From Candidatus Marinacidobacterium sp. (GTDB lineage: Bacteria > Acidobacteriota > Vicinamibacteria > Marinacidobacterales > Marinacidobacteraceae), in the NCBI GenBank assembly GCA_965250045.1, contig CBDFNG010000001.1, positions 6,164-70,163 of the forward strand: a DNA stretch of 64,000 nt, in the 5' to 3' direction. A program made the translations under genes and the position numbers. The notes under the pieces were generated by a model. It saw only the letters and a program-made list of their open reading frames with translations. It did no database searches and was not told where the DNA came from. Positions 720-16,243 of the stretch are shown here, piece after piece; position 1 is the stretch's first letter, and each line of letters opens with the position of its first letter.

Positions 720-3086
720 ATGTCCGACACCGCGCATCAGGGTCACCAAGCCGTCGTCATCGGAATGGGAGCGTTCTCTCCACTGGGACGCAACTGTGCC
801 GAGATGAAGCAGGCGCTGCTCGACGGTCGCGATTCGATCGCAAAGGTGACCCGCTTCGACGCAGGCGGCTTCGCCGGTGAACTGGCCAGCAGCTTCGGCG
901 ATGACATCCCGGTCGAGGTGGATGCGTACGCGCGTTCGTGGATGGATCGTGCCACGCTCCTGTCCGTCGAAGCATACCGGGAGGCGATCCGCTGCGCGGG
1001 AGTGGATCCTCGGGACTTCGATCCGGAAAGGGTGGGGGTGTGCCTGGGCAGCTCGCACAGCGGTCTCGTGCGCACCGAGGAGGTCGCGCAGCACGTCTTC
1101 CGCAAGCAGTGGGACCGGATCCGTCCCAGAATCGTGGCGGCGACCCTGGTCTCTCACTGCACCTCGATCATCAAGCGTATGAGCGGCGCCCGAGGCCGCG
1201 TCATCACGATCTCCTCGGCTTGCGCCAGCTCCAATTCCGCCGTGGGCATCGGTGCCGATCTGGTACGCAGGGGCGAGCTGGATCTGGTCGTTGCCGGCGG
1301 CTCCGACACGGTGTCTCTCTCGGTCATGGCGGGATTCAATGCCCTGCGGGTGATCTCCCACGACAAGACCGCGCCGTTCTCCAACCCCGCCGGTCTCAAT
1401 CTCGGGGAAGGCGCCGGCATCGTCGTCCTCAAGCGCGGGGATCTGGAGATGCCGGGATGCGGGCCCCCGCTGGCCGAGATCCTGGGTTACGGCCTCTCCG
1501 GCGACGCCTGGCACGCCACGGCGCCGGACCCCGACGGAGTCGGGTGCGAGCACGCGATGATCGCCGCCCTCGAAGACGGCGGCCTGGCCGCGGCCGATAT
1601 CGACTATGTCAACGCGCACGGCACCGGGACGGAAGCCAACGACGCGGCGGAATCCCGATCGTTGAGCCGGCTGTTCGGCGATACCACCCCGATCAGCTCC
1701 ACCAAGTCCTTCTTCGGTCACACGCTGGGGGCTAGCGGCGTCCTGGAGCTGATCGCCTCCCTTCTGCTTGCCGGGGATGGAATGGTTCCGCACGGCCTGC
1801 GAATGGATGCGGTGCGCGAGGGATGCGCGCGGCTGGACTACGTGCGCAACGCCCCTCGCAAGGGCAGACCCGGCGTCATCATGGTCAACAACTTCGGTTT
1901 CGGCGGCAACAACAGCTCGCTGATTGTGCGAGCAAGCCGGAACAGCTCGCTGATCGTGCGTGCAGGCCGGGAGCGGGTCTCGCACCACCGGCGCCCCGCG
2001 CGGCCCGACGCGGTCGTGTTGACCGGGATCGGTGTCGTGAGCGCCGCCGGCGCGGGTGTCGCACGGTTCCGCGACGCTCTGGAGGCCGGTAGCGCCTTGG
2101 CCCGGAGGGATCCGGAGAGCGGCATCGACGCCGCGTACTGTCCCGGACTGCGCTTCACGGATCCCAAGCTCACGCGGTTCGCCCGCAACGCACCCGCGAC
2201 GCGCTATGCCGTCATCGCTCTGGACGAGGCGCTCGGCGCCGACAAGGCCGTCTACGACCACGACCCGCGTTCCGGTCTTGTCGGGGGAGTGATTTTCGCC
2301 GCTCAGAAGCCGACCGAGAAGTACATGGAAAGCGTGTTTGCCGACCCGGCGCTCGCGAGCGCGCTCTACTTCCCGATGACGACCATGAACGCGATGGGAA
2401 GCACCTGCTCGTTGGCATACGGAATCACGGGGTACACCACTACCGTGTGCGGCGCCGCGGCGGGCCTGGCCTACGCGTCGGATCTGGCCCGCGACGGCCG
2501 CCAGGATCGAGTGGCCATGGTCTCGGCGGATGAGTTATCGCCGCGGCTACTCAAAGTCTACCGGTACGCCGGTGTGGTGCGGGGTGCGACTGACGGGTGT
2601 CGTGGCCGGGCCGACGCACTGGGAGAGTTCGCAGCGGCGCTGACCCTGGAGCGGGCGTCGAGCGCGAGAGAGCGAGGCGTGGGTCCCCTGGCGCGCCTTG
2701 CGGGCTGGGCCCATTTCCAGGATCCCCTCGATCTCTCGGTTGCGCGGGACGGCTCCGCTCTTCGACGGGCGATCGATGCCGCCCACCACATGGCGGGGAT
2801 CACCGCTTCTCATATTGGCCTCGTCAGCCTGCTCGATCGGGGGGTCGCGCCGTCGCGCCGCGCCTGCCGCCGTGCCCTGAACGCCGTATTCGGAGAGGAG
2901 TCGCCGCCGATCGTCCGGCCGGACGAGGTGTTCGGCTTCGCTCCCTCCAGCGGCGCGGTGATGACCGTTGCCACCGCGCTGGCGAGCCTGCAACGCAACG
3001 AGGACGCCCCACGCCATGTGCTGGCCGCCGGCTGCGATCTGGTCGGCGACGGTTTCGCTTTCATCCTGGAGAGGAGCCCGCAGTGA
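720..3086 (+). CDS. Fused tandem beta-ketoacyl-ACP synthase: complete KS domain plus C-terminal KS-fold (chain-length-factor-like) domain
   Basis: N-terminal half has ISSACASS (Cys), WHATAPDP (His), NAHGTGT (His) and GHTLGASG. The C-terminal half (about 370 aa) aligns by eye to the thiolase/KS fold but lacks an HGTGT motif. An alternative in-frame ATG at 648 has a GGAGAG SD. Confidence 0.85.
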   Translation: MSDTAHQGHQAVVIGMGAFSPLGRNCAEMKQALLDGRDSIAKVTRFDAGGFAGELASSFGDDIPVEVDAYARSWMDRATLLSVEAYREAIRCAGVDPRDFDPERVGVCLGSSHSGLVRTEEVAQHVFRKQWDRIRPRIVAATLVSHCTSIIKRMSGARGRVITISSACASSNSAVGIGADLVRRGELDLVVAGGSDTVSLSVMAGFNALRVISHDKTAPFSNPAGLNLGEGAGIVVLKRGDLEMPGCGPPLAEILGYGLSGDAWHATAPDPDGVGCEHAMIAALEDGGLAAADIDYVNAHGTGTEANDAAESRSLSRLFGDTTPISSTKSFFGHTLGASGVLELIASLLLAGDGMVPHGLRMDAVREGCARLDYVRNAPRKGRPGVIMVNNFGFGGNNSSLIVRASRNSSLIVRAGRERVSHHRRPARPDAVVLTGIGVVSAAGAGVARFRDALEAGSALARRDPESGIDAAYCPGLRFTDPKLTRFARNAPATRYAVIALDEALGADKAVYDHDPRSGLVGGVIFAAQKPTEKYMESVFADPALASALYFPMTTMNAMGSTCSLAYGITGYTTTVCGAAAGLAYASDLARDGRQDRVAMVSADELSPRLLKVYRYAGVVRGATDGCRGRADALGEFAAALTLERASSARERGVGPLARLAGWAHFQDPLDLSVARDGSALRRAIDAAHHMAGITASHIGLVSLLDRGVAPSRRACRRALNAVFGEESPPIVRPDEVFGFAPSSGAVMTVATALASLQRNEDAPRHVLAAGCDLVGDGFAFILERSPQ

Positions 3087-3559
3087 ACGATTGCACCACT
3101 TCGCACGATTGCGCCGCTCCGCCGGCGGCCGTCACCACCTGCCGGGTCATCTTCGGAGATACCGATGCGGGCGGCATCGTCTACCACCCCCGATACCTCG
3201 AGATGGCGGAACGGGGGCGCAACGAACTCATGCGCGCGGTGGGGCTTGACCTCGGTGACATGTTCGAGCACCGCCGTCTCGGGCTCGCGCTGCGGTCGGC
3301 GGACATGAAATTCCATGTTCCCGCGCTGTTCGACGATCGCCTCACCATCCGGACCGCGGTCGAGAGACTCGGAGCAGCCAGCTCGATGTGGATCAGCCGC
3401 ATCCGTCGCGGGGGAACCCTGGTCTGCACCGTGCGCGCCGAGCTCGTGTGCATGGATCGTTTCAGTGGGCGGCCGATACTTTATCCCGACGATGTCCGGG
3501 GCGTCTTCGAACTGGCCCTGTCGGGTGCCCCGAAGTGCGGGCAGGAGATCTCCCGATGA
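3083..3559 (+). CDS. Hotdog-fold acyl-(ACP/CoA) thioesterase, YbgC/4HBT-like
   Basis: FGDTDAGGIVYHPRYLEM motif typical of 4HBT/YbgC thioesterases. The GTG start overlaps the upstream stop (GTGA). Confidence 0.75.
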   Translation: MNDCTTSHDCAAPPAAVTTCRVIFGDTDAGGIVYHPRYLEMAERGRNELMRAVGLDLGDMFEHRRLGLALRSADMKFHVPALFDDRLTIRTAVERLGAASSMWISRIRRGGTLVCTVRAELVCMDRFSGRPILYPDDVRGVFELALSGAPKCGQEISR

Positions 3560-4302
3560 AGCTCCTCGACGGCAAGTCTGCGATCGTCACTGGTGCCTCG
3601 CGCGGGATCGGCCGCTCCATCGCCCTCGAATACGCGAGACAGGGGGCGTCGCTGGTGCTCAACGCCTCCCGCGCCTCCGATGCGCTGGACGAGACCGCGG
3701 CGGCGATCCGGGACATGGGCGGGCGTTGCGAAACAGTGCCCGGCTCCGTCGTCGAGGCGCCCGTCGCCAGAGCCCTGGCAGCGAGAGCGGTGGAAGCGTT
3801 CGGCAAGCTGGACATCCTGGTCAACAACGCCGGCATCACCCGCGACAAGCCGCTGGTGATGATGAGGGAGAAGGAGTTCGACGAGGTGCTCGCCGTCAAC
3901 CTGCGTGGCGTCTACCAGTGCTCGCGCGAAGCAGTCCGGGAGATGATGAAACAGCGTAGCGGCCGCATCATCTCCATCAGTTCCATCTCCGCCCTGGCCG
4001 GCCGGCCGGGGCAATGCAACTACGCGGCGGCGAAGGCCGGAATCGTGGGCTTCACGAAGTCGCTCGCCCGCGAGGCGGGCAAGTTCAACGTGCTCGCCAA
4101 TGCGCTGCTGGTCGGCGTGATCGATACCGAGATGACCAGGCGCATGCCGCCGGCAGCGAAGACGAAGCTCCGGCAGATCATCCCCCTCGATCGGGTGGGG
4201 CGGCCGGATGAAGTCGCCGGCCCCTGCGTCTTCCTGGGCTCCGATCTGTCGACCTTCGTCACCGGTACCACCATCAACGTCAGTGGAGGGAGTTACGTCT
4301 GA
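3556..4302 (+). CDS. 3-oxoacyl-ACP reductase (FabG family SDR)
   Basis: TGASRGIGRSIA, NNAG, S...YAAAKAG catalytic tetrad residues, 248 aa. ATGA overlap with the upstream gene. Confidence 0.9.
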   Translation: MKLLDGKSAIVTGASRGIGRSIALEYARQGASLVLNASRASDALDETAAAIRDMGGRCETVPGSVVEAPVARALAARAVEAFGKLDILVNNAGITRDKPLVMMREKEFDEVLAVNLRGVYQCSREAVREMMKQRSGRIISISSISALAGRPGQCNYAAAKAGIVGFTKSLAREAGKFNVLANALLVGVIDTEMTRRMPPAAKTKLRQIIPLDRVGRPDEVAGPCVFLGSDLSTFVTGTTINVSGGSYV

Positions 4303-4607
4303 TGATCAATACCCTTGTTGAAGCGCGCGCCTACGCCGGGCACCGCAACGCACTCACCCACCGTCTCAAGGAGACTCTGGTCGAGCGCCTCGACCTCGAC
4401 CGGCAGCCCGACGAGATTCCGGACGACTGCCTGCTCTTCGGGGTCGGGCTGGGCCTTGATTCCGTGGATGCGCTCGAGATTGTCGTCGCCATCGAAGGCG
4501 AGTTCGGATTCCGCGTCGAGGATGACGATATGCAGGAGATTCGTTCCGTCAACTCGATCGTGGACTTGATCCTGTCCCGCCGAACTCAAGAGGAGAACGT
4601 GCGATGA
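4302..4607 (+). CDS. Acyl carrier protein (cluster-dedicated)
   Basis: 101 aa, acidic, with phosphopantetheine attachment motif LGLDSVDALE. Start overlaps the fabG-like stop. Confidence 0.8.
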   Translation: MINTLVEARAYAGHRNALTHRLKETLVERLDLDRQPDEIPDDCLLFGVGLGLDSVDALEIVVAIEGEFGFRVEDDDMQEIRSVNSIVDLILSRRTQEENVR

Positions 4608-5593
4608 CCGACTATCGACGCATGCGCAACCACGCAGGGCTGGCCGATCTGCAGGAATGGACCCGCTTCGACCTTTCGGGTCCGCAAGCGGGCGATGCGC
4701 TGAACGCGGTCGTCGGCTGCAACGTCCGGGATCTTTTTGAAGGGCGGGCTGCGAATACTCTGATCCCGTCACCGGCCGGAGGGGTCGATGCCATTGTCTG
4801 GATAATCGCGTTGGAACACGGCTTCCGGATCATGGGCGAGCCCGCCGACCGGGAGGCGATCCGCGCCGCCCTCGAGGAGAGCATCTCCGGCCGAGACGCA
4901 ACGCTCCGGGACGTCCGCGACAAGACATTCGCCCTCGCCCTGATCGGGCCGGAGGCCGAGACGGTCGCCTGGAAGGCATTTGGAGACGAGGTTCATTCCG
5001 TCGCCTTCCTCAACGCCCTGCCGCTCGGCGACCCGGCGGTCCTGGCCGCGCGGATCGGATACTTCGGGGAGTACGAGTTGTATCTGTTCGGCGAGCCCGC
5101 CGGCAAGCAGGCGGTGATCGACACGCTCAAGCAGGTCGGAGACGGCGACGCGCTCATTGTGGGGGAGAGTGCGTTCCCCGTGATGATGACCGAGATGGGC
5201 ACGATGAGCCGGGAGCGGGACATTCCGCCGGAAGTCTCCGTTTTCGAAGCCGGCCTGCAGTGGATGATCGATTTCCGCAAGGAGAATTTGCGGGCGGCCG
5301 GGGAGCTTGCGCGGAAGAAGCACTCGGTGGAGCGCAAATGCGTGCTGATGATCGTCGACGGTGGGGCCGAGGGTCTGCTGGGCCAGCCGGTCTTTATCGA
5401 GAACTGTGACATCGGCCGCATCCAGTCCGCCTTCCCCTCGGAAGCCCTCGGCAGGTCCGTCGCTCTCGCCTACCTCGTCGAGGACCTGGGGATGCCGGGT
5501 CTGTCCTGCGCCGTCGGCACAGACCGCAGGGCCGGCAAGACCGTATCCGCGCCGGCCTTCCTGGGGCGCTCCATCCTCAACAGCCTGAGTTGA
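4604..5593 (+). CDS. GcvT-fold (aminomethyltransferase / folate-binding YgfZ-like) family protein
   Basis: ARIGYFGEYELYLF resembles the RTGYTGEDGFEI core of GcvT. The C-terminal barrel-like GRIQSAFPSEALGRSVALAYL resembles the GcvT_C pattern. ATGA overlap with the ACP gene. Confidence 0.65.
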   Translation: MTDYRRMRNHAGLADLQEWTRFDLSGPQAGDALNAVVGCNVRDLFEGRAANTLIPSPAGGVDAIVWIIALEHGFRIMGEPADREAIRAALEESISGRDATLRDVRDKTFALALIGPEAETVAWKAFGDEVHSVAFLNALPLGDPAVLAARIGYFGEYELYLFGEPAGKQAVIDTLKQVGDGDALIVGESAFPVMMTEMGTMSRERDIPPEVSVFEAGLQWMIDFRKENLRAAGELARKKHSVERKCVLMIVDGGAEGLLGQPVFIENCDIGRIQSAFPSEALGRSVALAYLVEDLGMPGLSCAVGTDRRAGKTVSAPAFLGRSILNSLS

Positions 5594-5603
5594 AGGAATC
5601 TTC

Positions 5604-6908
5604 GTGGACACCGGACCGACATATTCGGGTGCGAGGTTGCGCGCGATGGTCAGGTTGATGCTGGTCAGCCTCATCGTGATGATGGTGACGATCGTCGCGC
5701 TGTACTTCACACCGTTGACCGTGGCGCCGCTCATCGCCGCCTCTCTCTACGCCGGTCTGTGGGCGTATGAGCGGCGGCTCGGGGTGGCTTCTCCCATTAC
5801 CCGGATCATGATCGTGTTCTATCTGTTGTTCGCGTTCGCCCGCTACTGGCTTGATGATCTGTCCTGGATGGCCTGGTTCTCCCCGATGGTTTATTGGACC
5901 CTGGCGGCACTGATCTTCGCGCTGCTGCTGGCGGGCCGGCCATTCACCGCCGTCTACACGGGAGACGCCAGCTTCCCGCCGCTCCACCGCGCGATCTCGC
6001 TGTTATGGGGAGGGTTGCATTTCGCAGCCGGCCTTGCCGCGCTGGTCCTGATTCCGGGGTTGGGTTTTCTCTACTTGCCGCTGAGCCTGATGGTGCTCGG
6101 GGCGCTCGTCACGGTGTGGCTGAACTTCGTCTCGATGGGACCCGCCTACGGACGGCAGCCCCGGTTCGAACTGGAAGGCTACTCATTCCGCCAAGCGGCG
6201 AGCCGGGACGACCGGGAGACCTTCTACAACGTCATCGCCGAGGCATATCGGGCGGATCTGCAGAGCGCGCTCGGAATGCGCCGAAAGATCGACAAGGAAG
6301 CGATCATCCGCGAACACCAAGCTTCCAACCGCAAGTGGCAAGGCGATTTCCTGCCGTTTCTGGTGTTCGCCGGCGACCGGCCGGTGGGGGGAATCTGCAT
6401 CTTCTTCGATCACGAGGAGCGTGGTCTGCCCATCGAGGGCGAAGCCCGAATCGATCTGAAGTCATGGCGCCGCGTGGGTCCGGTCGCAGAAGTCGGCCGC
6501 CTCGGCGTGCTCCGGCGCTACCGCATCAGCCCGGTGCTCCTGAAGGGGCTCTTCAAATGCGTCATCGAAGCGGCCGCCGAGAGGCGCGTCCACTTCATCT
6601 TCAACGACTCCTTCAATTTCCAGTCGAAGATGTACGAGAAGATCGGCTTCAAGGCGCTTCACGACGAGCCGTACGTGTCAGGGGACGAGCACTCTACCGG
6701 CTACGGGCTCAAGGTCCTGCCGATGATGATGGACTTGGCAGGCATGGTGCGTCTGGACACACCGGGCGGCATGGCCGCCGACATGCGCGACATCCTGGCC
6801 CCTTACGTGATGGAACGCTTCTTCAAACACCTTGCCATCCGGGAGATGGCGAGCACCTTCCTTTTTTCCGAAACACAACCGAGGGAGATTGAGAATGCAA
6901 AAGTCTGA
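5604..6908 (+). CDS. Polytopic membrane domain fused to a GNAT-like N-acyl amino acid synthase / autoinducer-synthase-fold acyltransferase domain
   Basis: The first 180 aa or so form about 5-6 hydrophobic helices. The C-terminal 240 aa contain EVGRLGVLRRYR, matching the E-[VL]-[GS]-R-x-x-V-x3-[YF]R signature of OlsB/FeeM-type acyl-ACP-dependent N-acyltransferases. GTG start. Confidence 0.5.
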   Translation: MDTGPTYSGARLRAMVRLMLVSLIVMMVTIVALYFTPLTVAPLIAASLYAGLWAYERRLGVASPITRIMIVFYLLFAFARYWLDDLSWMAWFSPMVYWTLAALIFALLLAGRPFTAVYTGDASFPPLHRAISLLWGGLHFAAGLAALVLIPGLGFLYLPLSLMVLGALVTVWLNFVSMGPAYGRQPRFELEGYSFRQAASRDDRETFYNVIAEAYRADLQSALGMRRKIDKEAIIREHQASNRKWQGDFLPFLVFAGDRPVGGICIFFDHEERGLPIEGEARIDLKSWRRVGPVAEVGRLGVLRRYRISPVLLKGLFKCVIEAAAERRVHFIFNDSFNFQSKMYEKIGFKALHDEPYVSGDEHSTGYGLKVLPMMMDLAGMVRLDTPGGMAADMRDILAPYVMERFFKHLAIREMASTFLFSETQPREIENAKV

Positions 6909-7734
6909 AGGCCGGCCGATCGGCCGCACTGTTCTGGGGACTTGGCTGACGGCAGGAGTGCTGGCGCTGGGATACGGCCTCATGGTGTCCGGCTGCGCGC
7001 CGGTGACGCCCGTGGTCGAGCCCACTGCCCCGGCCGGGGAGATCGACAGCTTGGAAAAGGCCGAGCAGGCTTGGCGGGCCGAGAATATCGCAGAGCACGA
7101 ACCGATCTGGAACGAGGAGAACGATCCGGACGGCGATCCGTTCTCGGCCGGCTTGGCTGCGTTCCATCTGGCGTCAGTGACTTTCGATCCGGCGTGGTCC
7201 AACGCGGCCATCGACGCCTTCGACAAGGTGATCGAGAGCAGTCCCGGCTTCACCCTCGCCCGTGCGTGGCGGGGCTCGGCCCATGCGCTGATGGCCCGCG
7301 ATTACCCCGTCAAGGGGCTCTGGCAGATCGTCCCGGGTCCCGGTTTCGTCCGGCTCTACCACGTCAAGACAGCCTTCTCCGATCTGGACGCGGCGGTCGG
7401 CGCCGCTCCAGACGATCCCGTCATCCGGCTCATCCGCGGCTCAACCTATCTCGGGATGCCGTCGGTCTTCGGTGGTGACGACGAGGGGCTCGAGGATTTC
7501 GACCAGCTGCGCGCCTGGACCCGCGACCCGGAGAGCAATAGCGATCACGCGGACGTCCTGCGCTCGACGGGCTGGCGTGAGGAGTACTACCTCTCGCGGT
7601 CCCGGGCGATGGAGAAGATCGGAGAGAACGAAGACGCGGCCCGGTCCTGGATGCAGCTTTCCGAGGTGACCGACAACCCCATTCTCATGGAGCTGGCGAA
7701 ATGGCACCGGATCTCTCTCGGCGCATCGCAATAA
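6895..7734 (+). CDS. Predicted lipoprotein, helical-repeat protein (paralogue A of 11604-12224)
   Basis: Signal peptide with lipobox MVSGC. Shares the block A-W-x3-GSA-x-A-x-M-x-RD ... AAP-x-D-x2-[IV]RLIR ... LED[FM] with ORF 11604-12224. Confidence 0.55.
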   Translation: MQKSEGRPIGRTVLGTWLTAGVLALGYGLMVSGCAPVTPVVEPTAPAGEIDSLEKAEQAWRAENIAEHEPIWNEENDPDGDPFSAGLAAFHLASVTFDPAWSNAAIDAFDKVIESSPGFTLARAWRGSAHALMARDYPVKGLWQIVPGPGFVRLYHVKTAFSDLDAAVGAAPDDPVIRLIRGSTYLGMPSVFGGDDEGLEDFDQLRAWTRDPESNSDHADVLRSTGWREEYYLSRSRAMEKIGENEDAARSWMQLSEVTDNPILMELAKWHRISLGASQ

Positions 7735-8885
7735 CCGGCGCCGGAGCCATCGGCTCGTTCGGGCTCGGCACCGAGGCGCTCTGGGACTGCCTGGGCGCGG
7801 GCAGGGCGAAATTCGCCCCCTGCACGCGCTACCCCGGCGCCCTTCCGTGCGCGGAGGCGGTGAAGCCGAACCTGCGGCGCATGCTGCAATCCGGCCGGCT
7901 CTCGAGGATGTCGCTGGTGTCGCAGTTCGCGATCGCGGCGGTGTATCTGGCGTTGAGCCAAGCCGGCATCCTTACCGGCAAGGGGGCGGCCGGCCGCGCC
8001 ATCGGTATCGTATACGGCACCTCGAACGGACCTGGCGCGACCACTCAGGAGATCTACGACGACCTGATCGACCGTGGTCCGACGGGGGTGAAGCCGCGGG
8101 TCTTCCAGGAATCCGTCTTCAACGCCCCAGCGAGCCTGGCGAGCATCCATTTCGGGCTGAAGGGACCGATCCAGGTTCTGGCCGCCAGCGCCTGCGCCCC
8201 GTCGGTTCTCTTTCAGGCGCAGATGCTGCTGGCGCATCCCGGCGTCGATGCGGTGATCGCGCTCTGCGCCGACGAGCTGTGCGAGGCGATCCAGTCCGCC
8301 CTGCGGGTCTTGCGCTGGCACCGGTCGCCCGCCGGGGACGAAGGGCCGTCGCCGTCCGGCCCCGGACGGGGAGCGATCTCGTCGGAGGGGGCGGCGGCCC
8401 TGATCCTCGAGCGCGGTGACGATGCCCGGGCTCGGGGCGCGGTCACGCTGGCCGAGATGGCCGGTGCCGCCTCGACCAACGACGCCTGGAAGCTGGTCCG
8501 GCCGGCGCGAGACGGCCGTGGACTGGCCGCCGCGATGAACGAGTGTCTTGCCGATGCCGAGGCGGCGCCGGGCGACGTGGACATGATCCTGTCGGCCTCC
8601 GCCAACACCGACATCGACGATGGTCTGGAAACCGCGGCCGTTCAATCGGTCTTCGGGGACGCCGCGCCGCCGGTGGCATCGACCAAGGACGACATCGGAT
8701 ACGCGATGGGAGCCGCGGCGATGTTCGACATCACGCTGGCGACCGAGATGGTCCACCGTGGCCGGGTCCCCGCCTCCCTGGATGCGGCCGGGACCCTCGC
8801 CGGCGGGATCGGATCGGTTTTGTGCGCCGGCATCGGCCTGAACGGCCTGTTCGGCGCCGTTCTGATCAGGAGAGCGGCATGGTGA
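7701..8885 (+). CDS. KS-fold protein lacking both catalytic His residues (chain-length-factor / KS-beta-like)
   Basis: ITGAGAIGSFG N-terminus and GLKGP...SACAPS region. TNDAWKLVRP replaces DAYHxTAP, and SASANTD replaces AHGTGT. Confidence 0.8.
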   Translation: MAPDLSRRIAITGAGAIGSFGLGTEALWDCLGAGRAKFAPCTRYPGALPCAEAVKPNLRRMLQSGRLSRMSLVSQFAIAAVYLALSQAGILTGKGAAGRAIGIVYGTSNGPGATTQEIYDDLIDRGPTGVKPRVFQESVFNAPASLASIHFGLKGPIQVLAASACAPSVLFQAQMLLAHPGVDAVIALCADELCEAIQSALRVLRWHRSPAGDEGPSPSGPGRGAISSEGAAALILERGDDARARGAVTLAEMAGAASTNDAWKLVRPARDGRGLAAAMNECLADAEAAPGDVDMILSASANTDIDDGLETAAVQSVFGDAAPPVASTKDDIGYAMGAAAMFDITLATEMVHRGRVPASLDAAGTLAGGIGSVLCAGIGLNGLFGAVLIRRAAW

Positions 8886-9826
8886 CGACGGCGCTGGTGT
8901 TCCCGGGGCAGGGTACCCAGTCCGCAGGGATGGGGCGCGGGCTGATGGATCTGCCCGCGGTGGCGGCGACGGTCGAGCAGTGTTCCGCGCAAACCGGCCT
9001 CCCGATCCTGGAGTACGTGCTGAATACCCCGGATACGGCGCTGCGCGAGACGGAGCGGGCGCAACCGGCAATCTTCGCCCTGTCGGTCGGGCTCGCCCGC
9101 GCCCTGCTGGACGAGGGGGTCCGGCCGGCTCTGCTCGCCGGCCACAGCATCGGTCACTTCACGGCCCTGACGGTGTCCGGGGCCTTGCAGCCGGGCGACG
9201 CGGTGCGCCTGATTGCGCAGCGCGGCCGGCTCATGGCCGCCGGCGGCCGGCGTCGACCCGGCGGCATGGCAGTCGTGCACGGCCTGGACAGCCGGACGGT
9301 CACGGAAGTGATCGAAGAATCCGGCCTTGCGGTGTGGCCCGCCGTCGTCAATCTCCCACGGCAGATCACGGTGTCCGGCGACCGGGACGCGCTCGAGGAG
9401 GCGCGGCGCCTGTTCACCGGACTCGGCGGCCGGTGGCGCAAGCTCAACGTGTCGGGCGCATTCCACTCGCCGCTGCTCGACGAGGAGGCCGCGGACTTCG
9501 CCGCCCTGGTGGATACGCTCGAAATCGCCCAGCCGTCGGCTCCGATCCTGCGTAACAGCGACGGTGCGGCACTCACCCGGCCCGAATGCATTCGCGAGGA
9601 TCTGAAACGACATATGACCGGGCCCGTACGCTGGGTCGCGGTCATGGAGGCCCTGCTCGATGCCGGAGCAGAGCTCGTCATCGAGGCCGGGCCGGGCAAG
9701 GTCCTGACCGGCCTCACCAAGCGCTACGCCCGTGATCTGCCGGTCATGAGCACGGATACCCCTTGCGCACTGCACCGTGCCGTACAGGCGGCCACGGCGG
9801 ATCAATACAAGGAGGACTGCCGATGA
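8879..9826 (+). CDS. Malonyl-CoA:ACP transacylase (FabD family)
   Basis: FPGQGTQ N-terminus, GHSIGH active-site Ser, VSGAFHSPLL His motif. 7-nt overlap with the upstream gene. Confidence 0.9.
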   Translation: MVTTALVFPGQGTQSAGMGRGLMDLPAVAATVEQCSAQTGLPILEYVLNTPDTALRETERAQPAIFALSVGLARALLDEGVRPALLAGHSIGHFTALTVSGALQPGDAVRLIAQRGRLMAAGGRRRPGGMAVVHGLDSRTVTEVIEESGLAVWPAVVNLPRQITVSGDRDALEEARRLFTGLGGRWRKLNVSGAFHSPLLDEEAADFAALVDTLEIAQPSAPILRNSDGAALTRPECIREDLKRHMTGPVRWVAVMEALLDAGAELVIEAGPGKVLTGLTKRYARDLPVMSTDTPCALHRAVQAATADQYKEDCR

Positions 9827-11082
9827 TTCCCCGGATGAAATCGCGTGACGCACTGGTGACCGGTGTAGGACTGGTCAACGCGATAGCGAGCGATTTCGAG
9901 TCGTTCATCGAGGCCATGCGCACGGGCCGATGCGGGCAACGACCGATTACCAGCTTCGACGCCAGCGGGTTGCGCAACCCGCGAGCCTGCGAGGCGGTGG
10001 AATTCGACCCGCGTCCGGTCTACGAACGGCGGGACAAGAGAAAGATGGATCGCAGCTCCGAGCTCGTCCTCGCCGCCTTCGACCAGGCCGTCGCCATGGC
10101 GAAGATCGATCTCCACAGCGTGGAGCCGATGCGGGGCGCAGTGGTCATGGGATCCACCCTGGGCGGATCGGTGACCGGATTCCGGTACTACCGCGCCGCC
10201 CGGGAAGGCCGCCGCCGACCTTCTCAGTTGCGGGATCACTCGATGCATGCGCCGGGCTATCGCCTGTGCATCGAATCCGGCTTTCTCGGACCCAATCTGG
10301 TGCTCTCGACCGCATGCACTTCATCCAACCTCGCGCTGGCGGTCGCACACGACCTGGTGCGCACGGACAAGGCGGACGTCGTCATTACCGGGGGTTTCGA
10401 CACCATGTCCCAGGTCTCCTGCTCCGGCTTCAGCGTGATGCGCAACGTCACCCCCGGCATCTGCCGCCCGTTCGATCGCAATCGCGACGGCCTCGTCCTC
10501 GGCGAAGGCAGCGCGGTGCTGATCGTGGAGGCCGATGATTTCGCGGCCCGGCGCGGCGCACGGGCTCTGGCCGCGATCCGCGGCTACGGAATCGTCTCGG
10601 ACGCCCGCAGCATGACCGCACCGGACCCCACCGCGGCCGGGCCCGCCGCCTGCATGCGGCAGGCGATCGACATGGCCGGTCTGACCCCGGCCGGCGTGGA
10701 TCTGATCTGCGCCCACGGGACAGGCACGCTGCTCAACGATCAGACCGAGGCAAAGGCATTGTGCGACGTATTCGGTCCGCGCGGCGGAGAGATCCCCTGT
10801 GCATCGATCAAGTCGATGCTCGGCCATACCCTCGGCGCCGCGGGAGCAATGAACGTGGCCGCGGCGGTTGCCGCCCGGCGAGGCGGCTACATTCCGCCGA
10901 CCATCCACTTCGAGGAGCCGGACCCACGCGATCCGGTGTCCTGTTCCGCCGAGGCGCGTCCCGGGACACCGCGGCACGTTCTGTCGAATACGCTCGGATT
11001 CGGCGGTGCGAATTGCAGCGTCGTGATGGAGCTGGCCGACGATTCCGGGGTGCGCGAACGAATCCGCCCCACTCTTGTGTGA
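9823..11082 (+). CDS. Beta-ketoacyl-ACP synthase (FabF/FabB-like) with an atypical triad
   Basis: STACTSS (Cys), CAHGTGT (second His), SIKSMLGHTLGAAG. The first His position reads SDARSMTAP (Ser instead of His). ATGA overlap. Confidence 0.85.
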   Translation: MIPRMKSRDALVTGVGLVNAIASDFESFIEAMRTGRCGQRPITSFDASGLRNPRACEAVEFDPRPVYERRDKRKMDRSSELVLAAFDQAVAMAKIDLHSVEPMRGAVVMGSTLGGSVTGFRYYRAAREGRRRPSQLRDHSMHAPGYRLCIESGFLGPNLVLSTACTSSNLALAVAHDLVRTDKADVVITGGFDTMSQVSCSGFSVMRNVTPGICRPFDRNRDGLVLGEGSAVLIVEADDFAARRGARALAAIRGYGIVSDARSMTAPDPTAAGPAACMRQAIDMAGLTPAGVDLICAHGTGTLLNDQTEAKALCDVFGPRGGEIPCASIKSMLGHTLGAAGAMNVAAAVAARRGGYIPPTIHFEEPDPRDPVSCSAEARPGTPRHVLSNTLGFGGANCSVVMELADDSGVRERIRPTLV

Positions 11083-11091
11083 GAGCAAATC

Positions 11092-11607
11092 TTGAAAAGG
11101 AGAAACTACGTGACTGCATCCAACGCAGGACAGTACGACATCGAGGCCATCAAGCGGCGCCTGCCGCATCGCTATCCCTTCCTGATGGTGGATCGCATCG
11201 AGGAGAGCGGGCCGGGATATGCGATCGGGGTCAAGAACGTCACCGCTAATGAGCCCTGTTTCCAGGGGCATTTCCCGGGGCGCGCGGTCATGCCCGGGAC
11301 GCTGATCGCCGAAGCCTTGATGCAGACCTCGGCGTTCGTGGGCCGGTCTGCAGAGCCGGACGGCGGACGCGGTGCCATAGCGGACGTCAACGGGAGCAGG
11401 ACCGACCAGCAGCTTTTCTGCATCGGCATGAATCTGAAGTTCCGCAAGCCAGTGGTGCCGGGCGATCGGCTGCGCATGGACGTTCGTTTCGTACGGATGC
11501 TGGGGGATATGGTGCGGATCAAGGCGACCGCGCAGACCGCGGCCGGGGTCGTGGCGTCCGGAGACCTGAACCTTGCCGTCGTTACAGCCGAGGAGGACGA
11601 GACATGA
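11092..11607 (+). CDS. 3-hydroxyacyl-ACP dehydratase (FabZ family) with an internal insertion
   Basis: LPHRYPFLMVDRI and FQGHFPGRAVMPG motifs. An insertion of about 25 aa (SAEPDGGRGAIADVNGSRTDQ) follows the central helix. TTG start at 11092, or GTG at 11110. Confidence 0.85.
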   Translation: MKRRNYVTASNAGQYDIEAIKRRLPHRYPFLMVDRIEESGPGYAIGVKNVTANEPCFQGHFPGRAVMPGTLIAEALMQTSAFVGRSAEPDGGRGAIADVNGSRTDQQLFCIGMNLKFRKPVVPGDRLRMDVRFVRMLGDMVRIKATAQTAAGVVASGDLNLAVVTAEEDET

Positions 11608-12224
11608 AATCCGCTACCAGCGCGTATGTATTCGCCGCCGCACTCTCGCTGGCCGGCGTCTCGGTCCCGGCCGCCGTGGTGCCGCCCGCGCACGCGGCCG
11701 AAGCCGGCTCGGCCGGGGAGCCGTCGCCGGAGCTCATGGCCCTGCGCAAGCAGGGGATCGCATTGCATGACGAGGCGCGCGAGGGCGACCAGGAGGCGGC
11801 CGAGCAGGCGGTCGAGCGGCTCGAACGTTACCTGAAACAATTCTCGAAAGACGGGGAGGCCTGGGCGTATCTCGGCAGCGCCTACGCGATGATGGGGCGC
11901 GACGCCTCCAGTGTCGTCAACAAGATGCGATACACCAACCGCGGCCTGCGCCATCTGGATCGCGCGCTGGACGCGGCGCCTCGGGATTTCACCGTGCGCC
12001 TGATTCGCGCCAAGGTGAATTCCAGCTTGCCGAAGATGTTCAGCCGCAGCGATGCAGCGCTCGAGGACATGCTGGCGCTCGACGAGATCTTCCACGAGGA
12101 GCCATTGCCGGGGCTCGCCCGCTGGATGGTCGAGATCTACGAAGAGCTGCAAAGCCGCGCCCCGGACGCCGGCCCGTGGGGCGAACGTCTCGATCAGGCC
12201 CGCGAGCTCTCCGGGGGGCAGTAA
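11604..12224 (+). CDS. Secreted helical-repeat protein (paralogue B of 6895-7734)
   Basis: N-terminal signal peptide (AAALSLAGVSVPAAVVPPAHA). Shares conserved blocks with ORF 6895-7734. ATGA overlap with fabZ-like. Confidence 0.55.
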   Translation: MKSATSAYVFAAALSLAGVSVPAAVVPPAHAAEAGSAGEPSPELMALRKQGIALHDEAREGDQEAAEQAVERLERYLKQFSKDGEAWAYLGSAYAMMGRDASSVVNKMRYTNRGLRHLDRALDAAPRDFTVRLIRAKVNSSLPKMFSRSDAALEDMLALDEIFHEEPLPGLARWMVEIYEELQSRAPDAGPWGERLDQARELSGGQ

Positions 12225-12229
12225 GGACG

Positions 12230-12935
<706 letters not shown>

Positions 12936-12943
<8 letters not shown>

Positions 12944-14159
12944 TCTCATCTCCCTGTCTGTGAGGAACATCTTTCGCAACGGGCGTCGGACCGCCATCAC
13001 GGTGTTTTCGATCGTCATCGGCTTCGCCGCCATGGCCTGTTTCGGAGGCTTCATCGAGTTCTCCTTCGAAGGATTGCGGGAGAACACCATTCGCACCCAG
13101 CTCGGTCATCTCCAGATCTATGCGCACGGGTACTGGAAGAAACGGGTCTCGGACCTGGAATCCGTCCTGATCGCCGACCCGGACGAGGTGATGGAGCGCA
13201 TCGCCGATCTGCCAGGCGTCGCCACCGTGACCCCGCGCCTGTCCTTCTCGGGGCTCGGCAGCACCGGCAATGCGACGGTGAACATGTCCGTCATCGGGGT
13301 GGACCCGGAAGGTGAGCAGGATTTCTCGGATTTCGAGATCCTGGTGGAGGGGCGCACGCTGGAGCCGGACGACCCCGAAGCCGGGCTGATCGGGGAGGAA
13401 TTGCGAAACGGTCTGGGGGCCGAGATCGGCGACTGGGTGACGGTGCTGACCAGCTCGTTCGACGGCGTCATCAACGCGGTCGACTTCAGGGTGGCCGGCG
13501 TCGTGCGAACGGGTTCCAAGGAGTATGACAGCGTGTTCGCCAAGGTTCCGATCGAGCTGGCGCAACGCGCGAGAGAGACCGAGGAGGTGGAGCGGATCGT
13601 CGTGCTGCTCGAGAACACCGAGGATCTGCAGGAGTTGCAACCCCGGATCGAGGAGATTCTCTCGAAGCTCGATCGAAAGTTCGAAATCCGCCGCTGGGAC
13701 GAGCTGGCCGGCTTCTACGACGCGGTGGTTGCGCTCTATACGGGGATCTTCACGGTATTCGCGGGCATCGTGGGGGTGGTGGTGATGTTCTCGGTCGCCA
13801 ACACCATGACGATGGCCGTATTCGAGCGCACCGGGGAGATCGGGGCCCTGCGGGCGATCGGTGCGCGCCGCTCCACCCTGGTTGCGATGTTCCTGACCGA
13901 GGGGGTCGGGGTCGGGCTGCTCGGCGCCGGCCTCGGCGTGGTGGCGTCGTGGCTGATCGCCGGTGCGGTGGAGATCGCGGGGGGCATCCCGATGCCGCCG
14001 CCTCCCGGCATGTCCCAGGGATTCCAGGCCTATTTCAACCTCACCGGCGGGGTGCTGCTCGATGCCTTCGCCGTCACCGTGGCGGCGACGCTTGTGTCCT
14101 CGGTTTACCCGGCTTTCGCGGCGTCACGGATTCGTATCGTGGAGGCTTTGCAGCAATGA
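12936..14159 (+). CDS. ABC transporter permease, FtsX/LolC/LolE-like
   Basis: 407 aa with N-terminal TM helix, large periplasmic loop and three C-terminal TM helices. Overlaps the ATPase gene by 8 nt. Confidence 0.85.
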
Positions 14160-14899
14160 TGACGAACTCGATTACCGGTCGTTGCCTTGGCGCTGCCGGT
14201 ATCAGTCTCTCTCTGATCGCCAGCTTGGCCTCGGCGCAGGAGATGACACTCCTGCAGCAGGTGGATGCGGTGCGTGCGCCGGGCGGCGCGTTCACCTTCA
14301 AGGTCGCGATTACCGCGCCGGACGGCGATGGACTGAAGCTGTCCGTACGCGTGGCCGATCAGGTCAAGAGCCTGGTCCGTTATCTCGAGCCGCCGCGCAG
14401 CGCCGGACGCTCGCTCCTGTTCATCGAGCGCAACATGTGGGTGTACATTCCCGGCACCCGTCAGGTCTTGAGGATCTCGCCGCAGCAGCGGGTGCTGGGC
14501 GGAGTGGCGAGCGCCGACATCGCTCGCATGGTCTACTCGCTCGACTATGCCCTCGACTCCGTCGAGGAGCTGCCCGAGGAGGGGGGAGAACGCCGTCGGC
14601 GCCTCACCCTCTCCCGCCGCTCGAAGGGCGCGGCCTATGCGCGGATCACCCTCGTCTCCGGCGGCGACGAGGTACGCCCGCTCCAGGCATCCTTCTTCGC
14701 TTCCTCCGGCCGCGGCCATCTCAAGACCGCGTATTTCGAAGGCTACCGCGAGGTGCTGGGGCGGCCGCGTCCGACCGTCCTGCGGGTGATCGACCATTTG
14801 AACGGCGACCAGGAGACCGTCCTCGAATACACCGACTTCGCGCTCGAAGACACGCCCGACACCTGGTTTCAACCGACCTATCTCAAACGCCTGAGATAA
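14156..14899 (+). CDS. LolA-like outer-membrane lipoprotein-sorting family protein
   Basis: Signal peptide, then SLLFIERNMWVYIPGTRQVLRISPQQRVLGG.ASADIARMVYSLDY, typical of the outer membrane lipoprotein-sorting protein family. ATGA overlap with the permease. Confidence 0.7.
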   Translation: MMTNSITGRCLGAAGISLSLIASLASAQEMTLLQQVDAVRAPGGAFTFKVAITAPDGDGLKLSVRVADQVKSLVRYLEPPRSAGRSLLFIERNMWVYIPGTRQVLRISPQQRVLGGVASADIARMVYSLDYALDSVEELPEEGGERRRRLTLSRRSKGAAYARITLVSGGDEVRPLQASFFASSGRGHLKTAYFEGYREVLGRPRPTVLRVIDHLNGDQETVLEYTDFALEDTPDTWFQPTYLKRLR

Positions 14900-14980
14900 T
14901 GCACCGGTTGCGCGCACCGCTGATCCGCCGGCGTTCTGCCGCGGCCCGGCCGTCATCTCGAGTGCCCGAGGTGACCTGAA

Positions 14981-16243
14981 ATGATGTTTCGCTTCCGCGC
15001 CCTGTCCGTTGCCACGGCGCTGGCCGCTGTCCCGGCAGCCGGGGCCGATGCCGGCCCGTGGGCCTGGTCACTGAACGGGCTGGTGGACGTCCGCGCGCAT
15101 CGCAGTGAGGACAACGCAACGCAGCTCGTGCCGGAGCCGGAGCGGATTGGACTCGATACCCATCTCCTCTCGGTCACCACCGTGGCCGGGCTGGAGGCAT
15201 GGAACGGCCCCGTGACGGTCGCCGGCGCCGGCCGGCTGTACGCCCGCACCGCGCCGGGCGAGGGAGAACGCGCGGTGCGGCTCCACGTGGACGAGCTCCA
15301 TGCGGAGTACGCCGTGACCCCGGAGCACTTCCTGTACGCCGGGCGGCGCCACATCGTCCACGGGCGGTCACTGGGGGTGAATCCTTTGGACGTGGCTCTC
15401 GATCCCCTCGATCTCGATCGGTCCAAGGACGCGAACCGGCGGCGCAGCGAGATCGAAGGGCAGGACATGCTCGGCTTCGAATCTCTGCTCAGTGACCAGT
15501 TCACGCTGGCCGGCTACTGGACACCGGGCGAGCGCGCCCTGCTGGGCGGCACGTTCACGCTGCCGGATTGGAAGTCCGATCTCACGGCCCTCGTGCTCGA
15601 CGATGAACGTCCCGGTGCGGGGCTGTCCTTCTCGAGGACGCTCGGCGATGCTTGGCTTTCCTATGCGGATGTCGCGGTCCGCGGGGGCCGGGACCGGATG
15701 GTCATCCGGGCCGACCGTGGATCGGATGCGGGTCCGGGCGCGTTCCTCGTCGAGGAGGGCGACGACTCCCGGCTCTTTGCGCAGTCGATTGTCGGAGCCG
15801 GCTACACGCTCGAATCCGGGGCTACCTTCAACCTCGAATACCATTTCGACGCCAACGGTTACTCCACCGGCGAATGGAACGAGATCACCGGCCTGATCGT
15901 AGAGGCCGACACGGCTCGTGAAGAAGGACGTTTCGGCGGACTTCCCACCGGCAATCTCCTCCGGCTCAGCGCACAGCTCAATCAGTTCACGCTGAGGCGG
16001 CACTACGGCTTCCTGAGAGCACAGCATCCCGGCCTGTTCGGCCACGATCTCGCGGCGGAGATGACCGTCTTTCACAATCTGGCGGATCACAGCGGGAGCA
16101 TGGGGCTGCGCCTGGAACGCGGGCTGGGCCCGAACCTGCTGCTTGGCGTCGAAGGGCGCTATCTGTACGGCGAGGGCCTGGACGAGTTCGCGCTGCGCAC
16201 CGCGAGGCTGTCCGGTTCCATCCACGTCACCATCCATTTCTGA
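14981..16243 (+). CDS. Predicted outer-membrane beta-barrel protein
   Basis: Signal peptide (ALAAVPAAGADA), alternating hydrophobic strands, and a terminal aromatic residue (...VTIHF) as in OMP C-terminal signatures. Confidence 0.55.
   Translation: MMFRFRALSVATALAAVPAAGADAGPWAWSLNGLVDVRAHRSEDNATQLVPEPERIGLDTHLLSVTTVAGLEAWNGPVTVAGAGRLYARTAPGEGERAVRLHVDELHAEYAVTPEHFLYAGRRHIVHGRSLGVNPLDVALDPLDLDRSKDANRRRSEIEGQDMLGFESLLSDQFTLAGYWTPGERALLGGTFTLPDWKSDLTALVLDDERPGAGLSFSRTLGDAWLSYADVAVRGGRDRMVIRADRGSDAGPGAFLVEEGDDSRLFAQSIVGAGYTLESGATFNLEYHFDANGYSTGEWNEITGLIVEADTAREEGRFGGLPTGNLLRLSAQLNQFTLRRHYGFLRAQHPGLFGHDLAAEMTVFHNLADHSGSMGLRLERGLGPNLLLGVEGRYLYGEGLDEFALRTARLSGSIHVTIHF

Follow-up and report, generated by a model that had tools for sequence, protein, structure and literature searches.

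A 64,000-nt stretch of DNA from Candidatus Marinacidobacterium sp. was analysed (contig CBDFNG010000001.1 of assembly GCA_965250045.1, positions 6,164 to 70,163; hereafter the window). Close to its start lie three adjacent genes, which encode a dedicated acyl carrier protein (ACP2), a protein with the fold of the T-protein GcvT (P0001), and a membrane protein whose C-terminal domain resembles the N-acyl amino acid synthase FeeM (P0002). An initial annotation, made from the sequence alone, had called an ACP gene, a GcvT-like gene and a membrane-protein gene at this place, and all three open reading frames (ORFs) were indeed found open on the + strand at 4302-4607, 4604-5593 and 5604-6908. The features on which our argument turns are the following.

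4302..4607, + strand: ACP2, dedicated acyl carrier protein, 101 amino acids (aa); Pfam PP-binding, NCBIfam PRK09184
4604..5593, + strand: P0001, GcvT-fold protein, 329 aa; Pfam GCV_T, AlphaFold2 (AF2) model, Foldseek, residue mapping
5604..6908, + strand: P0002, membrane-anchored FeeM-like putative N-acyltransferase, 434 aa, GTG start; Pfam, AF2, structure matches
5604..6128, + strand: N-terminal six-helix membrane domain of P0002, aa 1-175; AF2, hydropathy, conservation
6174..6779, + strand: FeeM-like GNAT domain of P0002, predicted cytoplasmic, aa 191-392, with E296 in AEVGRLGV; VIA-align, Foldseek, profile alignment

The three genes are tightly packed. ACP2 is recognised by Pfam PP-binding (2.5e-10) and by the phosphopantetheine-binding model PRK09184 of NCBIfam, and its gene overlaps that of P0001 at 4604-4607 (gcgATGAcc), as expected from the ATGA coupling that had been noted. 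The gap of 10 nt in front of the membrane-protein gene is also real: the GcvT-like gene stops at 5591-5593, P0002 starts with the GTG at 5604, and the spacer contains AAGGA, 6 nt upstream of this GTG. The two motifs quoted in the initial annotation were located as well, with RIGYFGEYELYLF at aa 150-162 of P0001 and EVGRLGVLRRYR at aa 296-307 of P0002. For P0001 and for P0002 alike, clustering at 90% identity left >100 clusters of homologous proteins, down to ~50% identity, and full-length homologues of P0002 reach ~20% identity. Because so many diverse homologues exist, we regard both as real, selected genes.

The C-terminal domain of P0002 adopts a GNAT fold, and its closest relative of known structure is FeeM. 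In a VIA-align (wide) comparison, which does not depend on Foldseek, FeeM 2g0b came out first (Z 17.9, root-mean-square deviation 2.6, 178 residues aligned), followed by the best generic GNAT at Z 15.5 (2.4 less than FeeM) and by the LuxI-type enzymes LasI (14.4), TofI (14.3) and RpaI (within 13.6-14.4). A Foldseek search against the PDB likewise returned FeeM 2G0B (E 1e-8, target-normalised TM-score, TMt, 0.77-0.83), with the carrier-protein-dependent GNAT SbzI further down the list. At the profile level, the Pfam family FeeM (PF21926) matches 41 of the 44 full-length superfamily members (E<=0.01, best 7.7e-14), and most close homologues of P0002 carry a precomputed match to it. The initial annotation had assigned this domain to the OlsB/FeeM/autoinducer-synthase fold, and our results narrow the assignment to the FeeM branch. 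It is the GNAT/FeeM placement that holds; membership of the LuxI family does not, as the Pfam family Autoind_synth (PF00765) has no match in P0002 or in its 44 relatives. PF13444 does not match P0002 either, and gives weak matches in 10 of the 44 relatives.

The putative active site would fit a FeeM-like chemistry. When the family profile is aligned to FeeM, E296 of AEVGRLGV falls on the Glu of FeeM 'LAEV', which lies on strand beta4 and which we take to be the proposed general base; E296 is invariant in 59 close relatives. In GNAT enzymes the pyrophosphate loop usually reads Q/R-x-x-G-x-G/A. In P0002, R-R-Y-R-I-S stands in its place, and R307 is nearly invariant throughout the superfamily. 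Judged from these residues, the altered loop would fit an acyl donor borne by ACP rather than by coenzyme A.

The N-terminal part of P0002 had been described as some 180 aa of polytopic membrane helices. The AF2 model, built with 59 homologues (pLDDT 86.7, pTM 0.85), agrees: six long hydrophobic helices occupy aa 9-175 (9-35, 41-58, 64-82, 86-109, 125-149 and 154-175) and are followed by an alpha/beta domain at 187-392. Hydropathy combined with a charge count gave 10 K/R inside versus 1 outside, so the predicted topology is N-in/C-in and the GNAT domain would face the cytoplasm. P0002 thus departs from the soluble single-domain build of FeeM, and the fused six-helix domain is kept to ~20% identity. 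An exhaustive search with phmmer (E<=0.001) yielded 101 representatives, and the two-domain layout is present in the majority, down to ~21% identity. Several polar motifs of the membrane domain also persist to ~20% identity (E56-R-R, P64, G-R-P-F-T 111-115, L-H 127-128 and W135), and they sit on its predicted cytoplasmic face. This pattern of conservation indicates that the domain is more than a mere anchor. It has no match in Pfam or NCBIfam, and sequence matches in the PDB are at chance level (E 0.7-0.9). Searches of the ESM Atlas with the membrane domain returned only sub-threshold leads (0.84-0.86), among them YciB/IspA; this lead was dropped, since the PF04279 profile matched nothing genome-wide, including the P0002 gene. 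Structure searches were dominated by matches to the GNAT domain and say little about the fold of the membrane domain.

P0001 is a T-protein by fold. It matches Pfam GCV_T at 1.7e-28 (100 bits, cut-off 25.6) and GCV_T_C at 24.1 bits, marginally below the cut-off of 25.9. Its AF2 model is confident (pLDDT 90.5), and the best Foldseek matches are GcvT and the folate domain of dimethylglycine dehydrogenase (DMGDH), with query-normalised TM-scores (TMq) of 0.86-0.88; for 1woo/1wos the values are 0.87-0.88, and the profile match to 1WOO has an E value of 1.9e-29. P0001 nevertheless stays far below the NCBIfam equivalog cut-offs (PRK00389, 95.3 versus 300 bits; TIGR00528, 64.1 versus 235.85 bits). 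The initial annotation called it a full-length GcvT-fold protein. The fold is complete, but 'full-length' is a slight overstatement: P0001 aligns from profile position 36-38 onwards, lacks the N-terminal ~37 residues of the T-protein, and counts 329 aa versus ~360-375 at full length. Its neighbours in every locus examined are ACP, ketoreductase (KR), ketosynthase (KS) and transferase genes, not gcvH/gcvP.

It had further been proposed that P0001 is a folate-type aminomethyltransferase that supplies a glycine/serine-derived or N-methylated head group, and its tetrahydrofolate (THF) contacts were compared accordingly. In human GcvT (HsGcvT), the contacts Met56, Asp101, Tyr197 and Glu204 are invariant among THF-binding relatives; Glu204 makes a double hydrogen bond to the pterin, and Arg233 is specific to GcvT (PMC9551070). 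We mapped these positions via Thermotoga maritima 1WOO and the genome's own canonical GcvT onto 43 close family members, and onto the orthologue with 30% identity at locus L006, where the gene order is the same despite the altered residues.

Met56: Trp19, invariant in the family; Glu in the L006 orthologue
Asp101: D62 in 33/43, E in 10/43; Leu in the L006 orthologue
Tyr197: Tyr153 in 37/43; Tyr in the L006 orthologue
Glu204 (position 160): His in 36/43, Tyr in 7/43 including P0001; Arg in the L006 orthologue
Arg233 (position 191): Leu or Phe; Leu in the L006 orthologue

The equivalents of Glu204, Arg233 and Met56 are therefore lost, the Tyr is kept, and the Asp is kept loosely, with D62 at or adjoining the catalytic Asp (the aligners disagree by one residue). 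The pterin-binding Glu is retained in both the genome's canonical GcvT (314 bits, G000:C1:2052035) and a second GcvT-family paralogue. The latter, a gene of ~399 aa at G000:C1:700249-703992 (L015), scores 188 bits to GCV_T. Because the key THF contacts are replaced and the N-terminal residues are absent, canonical folate binding by the P0001 family is unlikely, and the proposed head-group role was not supported by the residue comparison. Some ligand site is probably maintained, to judge from the 68 columns that are invariant in 43 sequences and concentrated in the cavity-forming segments. These include the motifs GYFGEYE, MxEM and GLQWMIDFRK, and E158, two residues ahead of the lost Glu position, is invariant too.

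What, then, does P0001 do? We hold loosely to a folate-independent role on or with ACP2, because what points to it is the coupling of the genes, a single fusion and the pattern of substituted residues. The fusion is P0226 (430 aa), an in-frame ACP-GcvT-like protein represented by two sequences from an ENA contig of 25.7 kb, which is either a natural fusion or the product of a lost stop codon. No other fused form of the GcvT-like protein was found among proteins >576 aa, which is weak evidence.

An alternative explanation is that P0001 is not catalytic at all, and assists the ACP or the membrane enzyme as a structural adaptor or chaperone, in the manner of Iba57/YgfZ, or has a role unrelated to the transferase. 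The loss of the canonical catalytic set would agree with this, Iba57 sets a precedent for a folate-independent GcvT fold (PMC9551070), and the GcvT-like gene is absent from two distant contexts of the membrane transferase described below, which implies that the transferase does not strictly depend on it. Yet the invariant cavity columns fit a ligand site better than a scaffold. Moreover, the sequence of P0001 contains no Cys motif of the kind that we take to be the signature of YgfZ/Iba57, it has no NCBIfam YgfZ match, and the YgfZ-type structures 1vly and 1nrk rank only 35-40 in Foldseek (TMq 0.74-0.76 versus 0.87 for GcvT), well under GcvT and DMGDH. On balance a non-catalytic P0001 seems unlikely.

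We consider it more improbable still that P0001 remains a folate-dependent one-carbon enzyme, which would make or modify the head group, or add a one-carbon unit to the ACP-bound chain, while the FeeM-like enzyme acylates the head group. The homology to T-proteins, the wholly retained fold, the kept Tyr197, the acidic residue near Asp101 in all 43 close members, and the strong conservation of the central cavity, where a ligand is probably bound, all speak in its favour. Against it stand the substitutions at Glu204, Arg233 and Met56, the Leu at the Asp position of the L006 orthologue, the truncated N-terminus and a score of 95 instead of 300 bits. In addition, no oxidase, methyltransferase or amino-acid-handling gene was recognised among the operon genes by Pfam or NCBIfam.

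The three genes are part of a long co-directional operon that resembles type II fatty acid synthase (FAS) and polyketide synthase (PKS) systems. Its order is ACP1, a gene resembling short-chain dehydrogenases/reductases (SDR), KR1, KS-KS, thioesterase, KR2, ACP2, GcvT-like, transmembrane (TM)-FeeM-like, the downstream genes and a Lol-like export set. ACP1 and the SDR-like gene lie just upstream of the window, and 5' of the operon are eno, ispD, ispF and truD. The remaining operon genes inside the window are as follows, with dehydratase abbreviated to DH and acyltransferase to AT.

2-553, + strand: KR1, partial in the window (begins upstream); Pfam, NCBIfam
720-3086, + strand: fused KS-KS; Pfam, NCBIfam
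3083-3559, + strand: hotdog thioesterase; Pfam, NCBIfam
3556-4302, + strand: KR2; Pfam, NCBIfam
6895-7734, + strand: secreted protein or lipoprotein, no assigned function
7701-8885, + strand: KS-like; Pfam, NCBIfam
8879-9826, + strand: FabD-like AT; Pfam, NCBIfam
9823-11082, + strand: KS; Pfam, NCBIfam
11092-11607, + strand: FabZ-like DH; Pfam, NCBIfam
11604-12224, + strand: helical protein, no assigned function
12230-12943, + strand: LolD/MacB-like ATPase; NCBIfam LolD 234 bits, Pfam MacB_PCD
12936-14159, + strand: LolC/E-FtsX-type permease; NCBIfam lolCE 119 bits, Pfam FtsX
within ORF 13963-14979, + strand: LolA-like carrier, start uncertain; orthologues with PF17131 TP_0789-like
14981-16243, + strand: 420-aa protein, no assigned function

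Apart from the hotdog thioesterase, no PlsC/LPLAT-type (lysophospholipid acyltransferase) or other off-loading transferase was recognised among the operon genes by Pfam or NCBIfam, and the cluster contains no gene that would produce a special amine. Several of its genes show peculiarities of their own. The 228-aa gene between ACP1 and KR1 (G000:C2:5275-5961) has no Pfam or NCBIfam match, and shares ESM Atlas features (0.96, 197/256 in common) with SDR and enoyl-ACP-reductase clusters. The gene could encode a hidden SDR or enoyl reductase of very divergent sequence; the operon has no other enoyl reductase. An ApeI-like dehydratase that heads the Pseudovibrio-type operons is missing in the window's genome; its place upstream of the window (L009:4033-4933), directly after eno-ispD-ispF-truD, is taken by an ORF on the minus strand whose product has a signal like that of lipoproteins (…ALAGCAST…). 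The products of 6895-7734 and 11604-12224, both secreted and helical, look mutually related. A Pseudovibrio protein of 188 aa gave a tblastn match (36% over 53 aa) within the L005 gene that occupies the position of the 276-aa secreted protein. In Desulfosalsimonas, too, a homologue of the 188-aa protein (37% over 139 aa) comes after the transferase.

Conservation of this arrangement extends well beyond the window. The adjacency of ACP, GcvT-like and FeeM-like genes was found in all eight FAS-type loci, down to 30% identity, and the order of the whole operon (~19–21 genes) is kept in Pseudovibrio (L003, assembly GCA_001623245.1), in a second NCBI assembly (L004), in a metagenome-assembled genome (MAG) labelled Gammaproteobacteria (L001) and on the metagenome contigs L010-L012. 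Orthologues of the upstream genes (KR1, KS-KS, thioesterase, KR2) are syntenic in L001, L003, L004, L010 and L012, and even at 30% identity L006 keeps the order ACP-GcvT-like-FeeM-like-KS. Locus searches with closer queries yielded just one genome locus and three metagenome loci. Between the window and its relatives, the genes of P0001 and P0002 diverge at roughly the same pace as the remaining operon genes. The FabD-like AT gene (8879-9826) is present in the window and in Pseudovibrio-type loci; in the two closest relatives, L001 and L010, a tblastn search of the region separating the KS genes gave no match to it.

The distribution among organisms is patchy. The carriers that have a name are Candidatus Spongiihabitans, unclassified Pseudovibrio and a MAG of the Thiotrichales. 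A search of 15 congeneric genomes did not find the gene, and of 401 sampled genomes from the class the window's own was the only one to have it. Since its presence among class relatives is so patchy, the distribution points to horizontal acquisition.

Two more distant contexts show which partners travel with the membrane transferase. In Desulfosalsimonas propionicica (GCA_013761005.1, L007/L008) a TM-FeeM-like homologue with 28% identity lies in a cluster with an aromatic ammonia-lyase, an AMP-ligase, an ornithine/diaminopimelate (Orn/DAP)-type decarboxylase, an amidase, an acyl-CoA dehydrogenase, an ACP and an alpha/beta hydrolase. The cluster also holds a homologue of the helical protein and the same ABC/FtsX/LolA-like set, and has no GcvT-like gene; it may represent a pathway to an N-acyl amine lipid derived from an aryl acid. 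At L005 (ENA contig_4, 1.66 Mb) a homologue with 35% identity is followed by a secreted protein and KS-AT-KS, beside skp-fabZ-lpxA, and these last neighbours hint at a link to outer-membrane lipid synthesis. Of the three types of context that were read, two (FAS and Desulfosalsimonas) thus show the transferase in the company of an ACP and the Lol-like export set, and the GcvT-like protein has been added in the FAS-type branch only.

Taken together, we tentatively favour the interpretation that, in an orphan lipid pathway of the type II FAS/PKS-like kind, the chain is terminated and off-loaded by ACP2, the GcvT-fold protein and the TM-FeeM-like protein, and that the pathway continues into export; we would put its chances slightly below even. 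According to this scheme, the FeeM-type GNAT domain would be held at the cytoplasmic face of the inner membrane by its own six-helix domain, where it would take the finished chain from ACP2 and transfer it to an amine. Because conserved polar residues line the cytoplasmic face of the membrane domain, the head group of a membrane lipid and a free amino acid are both candidate acceptors. The resulting N-acyl lipid would enter the membrane and then move outward via the MacB/LolCDE-like pump, the LolA-like carrier and the 420-aa protein. P0001 would be a folate-independent T-protein derivative, in which the cavity that receives the swinging lipoyl arm of the H-protein in T-proteins may have been reused for the phosphopantetheine arm of ACP2, either to tailor the chain or to hand it over.

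This interpretation draws its strength from the clear first place of the FeeM fold, from the predicted position of the GNAT domain on the side of the membrane where acyl-ACP is found, and from the distant Desulfosalsimonas homologue, which keeps the ACP and the ABC/FtsX/LolA-like set in an otherwise different cluster. The operon furthermore encodes two dedicated ACPs. Several observations weigh against it. The match of P0002 itself to Pfam FeeM (aa 252-355) has an E value of 5e-4 and, with 20.3 bits, stays below the 27-bit cut-off. E296 is not kept across the wider superfamily, where several distant members have Q, D, L or G instead, and a GNAT fold in common leaves donor and acceptor unfixed. 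For P0001, the retained equivalent of Tyr197 and the acidic residue at or near the catalytic Asp in most members are features of a folate enzyme, and the invariant E158 would allow a shifted folate/pterin site. The contact between ACP and P0001 is suggested by gene order and by a single fusion, which is possibly an assembly error. At L005, GcvT-like and exporter genes are both absent from the surrounding 10 kb, and all member products are named 'hypothetical' in the databases.

It is very improbable that the C-terminal domain instead makes a signal in the way of LuxI, or depends on aminoacyl-tRNA as transferases of the MprF/Fem type do, with a signal or a modified phospholipid as the product of the operon: LasI, TofI and RpaI do appear among the structural matches, a LuxR-type gene flanks one related locus, and a membrane domain joined to a GNAT-like domain recalls MprF, but FeeM scores 3.5 Z higher than LasI, generic GNATs also outrank the LuxI enzymes, which find no profile counterpart in this family, no MprF or Fem structure occurs among the matches listed, and the dedicated ACPs, KS, KR, DH and Lol-like export set suggest a bulky lipid rather than a diffusible signal.

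Returning to the off-loading and export interpretation, a bolder version, about which we are doubtful, would have the T-protein fold moved from lipoyl arms to phosphopantetheine arms. The GcvT-fold subfamily would then be a new class of carrier-protein-dependent, folate-independent enzymes or gatekeepers that receive the loaded arm of a dedicated ACP and either modify the chain or relay it to membrane-integrated FeeM-type N-acyltransferases. The latter, a new class themselves, would supply a Lol-like route that takes a small-molecule lipid to the cell surface in sponge-associated and other marine bacteria. In the databases, the two proteins at present bear no more than the label 'hypothetical' or the name of a generic domain. 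As a pair they are the hallmark of a lipid pathway that is conserved and horizontally mobile, and that is carried by Pseudovibrio, which can be cultivated, and by Candidatus Spongiihabitans, Thiotrichales and Gammaproteobacteria MAGs. If our interpretation is correct, a membrane-integrated branch would be added to the synthases of N-acyl amino acids and aminolipids. P0001 would provide a second T-protein fold, after Iba57, that works without folate, here coupled to an ACP. Lol-type machinery could then also be dedicated to a small lipid.

The initial annotation also stated that no described pathway pairs this GcvT fold with such an N-acyltransferase. Our literature search agrees with this statement: a full-text search found no paper on the GcvT-like/FeeM-like pair or on the operon. 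Aminomethyltransferases mentioned in a paper on Plakortis sponges turned out to be flanking genes and were set aside as unrelated.

Individual parts of the system do have known counterparts. FeeM is encoded beside its ACP, FeeL. Similarly, the P0002 gene lies beside a dedicated ACP, and its product shares the GNAT sub-fold and the aligned beta4 Glu of FeeM and related N-acyl amino acid synthases. In contrast to FeeM, which is soluble and ~190 aa long, the domain of P0002 is fused to a conserved six-helix domain with invariant polar residues of its own. It has only 17–19% sequence identity, lies below the Pfam cut-off, and is encoded in a ~19–21-gene FAS/PKS-like operon with a Lol-like exporter. 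Within the broader GNAT fold, FeeM/NasY, OlsB/GlsB/OlsF (PF13444) and LuxI form a branch that acylates an amine from acyl-ACP; among the enzymes listed in the review text that was searched, none carries polytopic helices at its N-terminus or is encoded next to a GcvT-fold protein (PMC11631085). The operon of P0002 further differs from the OlsB/OlsF systems in having no OlsA/PlsC-type partner O-acyltransferase.

P0001 shares its three-domain fold (TMq 0.84-0.88) and the motifs R-x-G-Y-x-G-E, x-x-E-A/M and G-L-x-W with GcvT, dimethylglycine oxidase (DMGO)/DMGDH, DmdA, LigM and trimethylamine N-oxide (TMAO) demethylase. It differs from GcvT in its missing N-terminal residues, in the replacement of Glu204 by H/Y/R, of Arg233 by L/F and of Met56 by W, and in being coupled to an ACP instead of gcvH/gcvP. 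It resembles Iba57/YgfZ, for which a folate-independent function has been argued, in that the THF pocket of the T-protein fold is remodelled and the size is similar, ~325 aa (PMC9551070). Apart from the Cys motif and the lower structural similarity discussed above, the difference here lies in the context, which is lipid biosynthesis for P0001 versus Fe-S maturation for Iba57/YgfZ.

At the level of the whole operon, the closest likeness is to the aryl polyene (APE) and flexirubin clusters, with which it shares type II FAS-like pairs of KS and chain-length factor (CLF), two KRs, ApeI/ApeP-like dehydratases, a hotdog thioesterase, dedicated ACPs and, for transport to the outer membrane, a LolA-like protein. 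A GcvT-fold gene is not known from APE clusters. The operon, for its part, lacks aromatic starter machinery and an LPLAT acyltransferase, and has an ABC/FtsX pump instead of an MMPL pump. In this operon, the candidate for off-loading the chain is the TM-FeeM-like enzyme.

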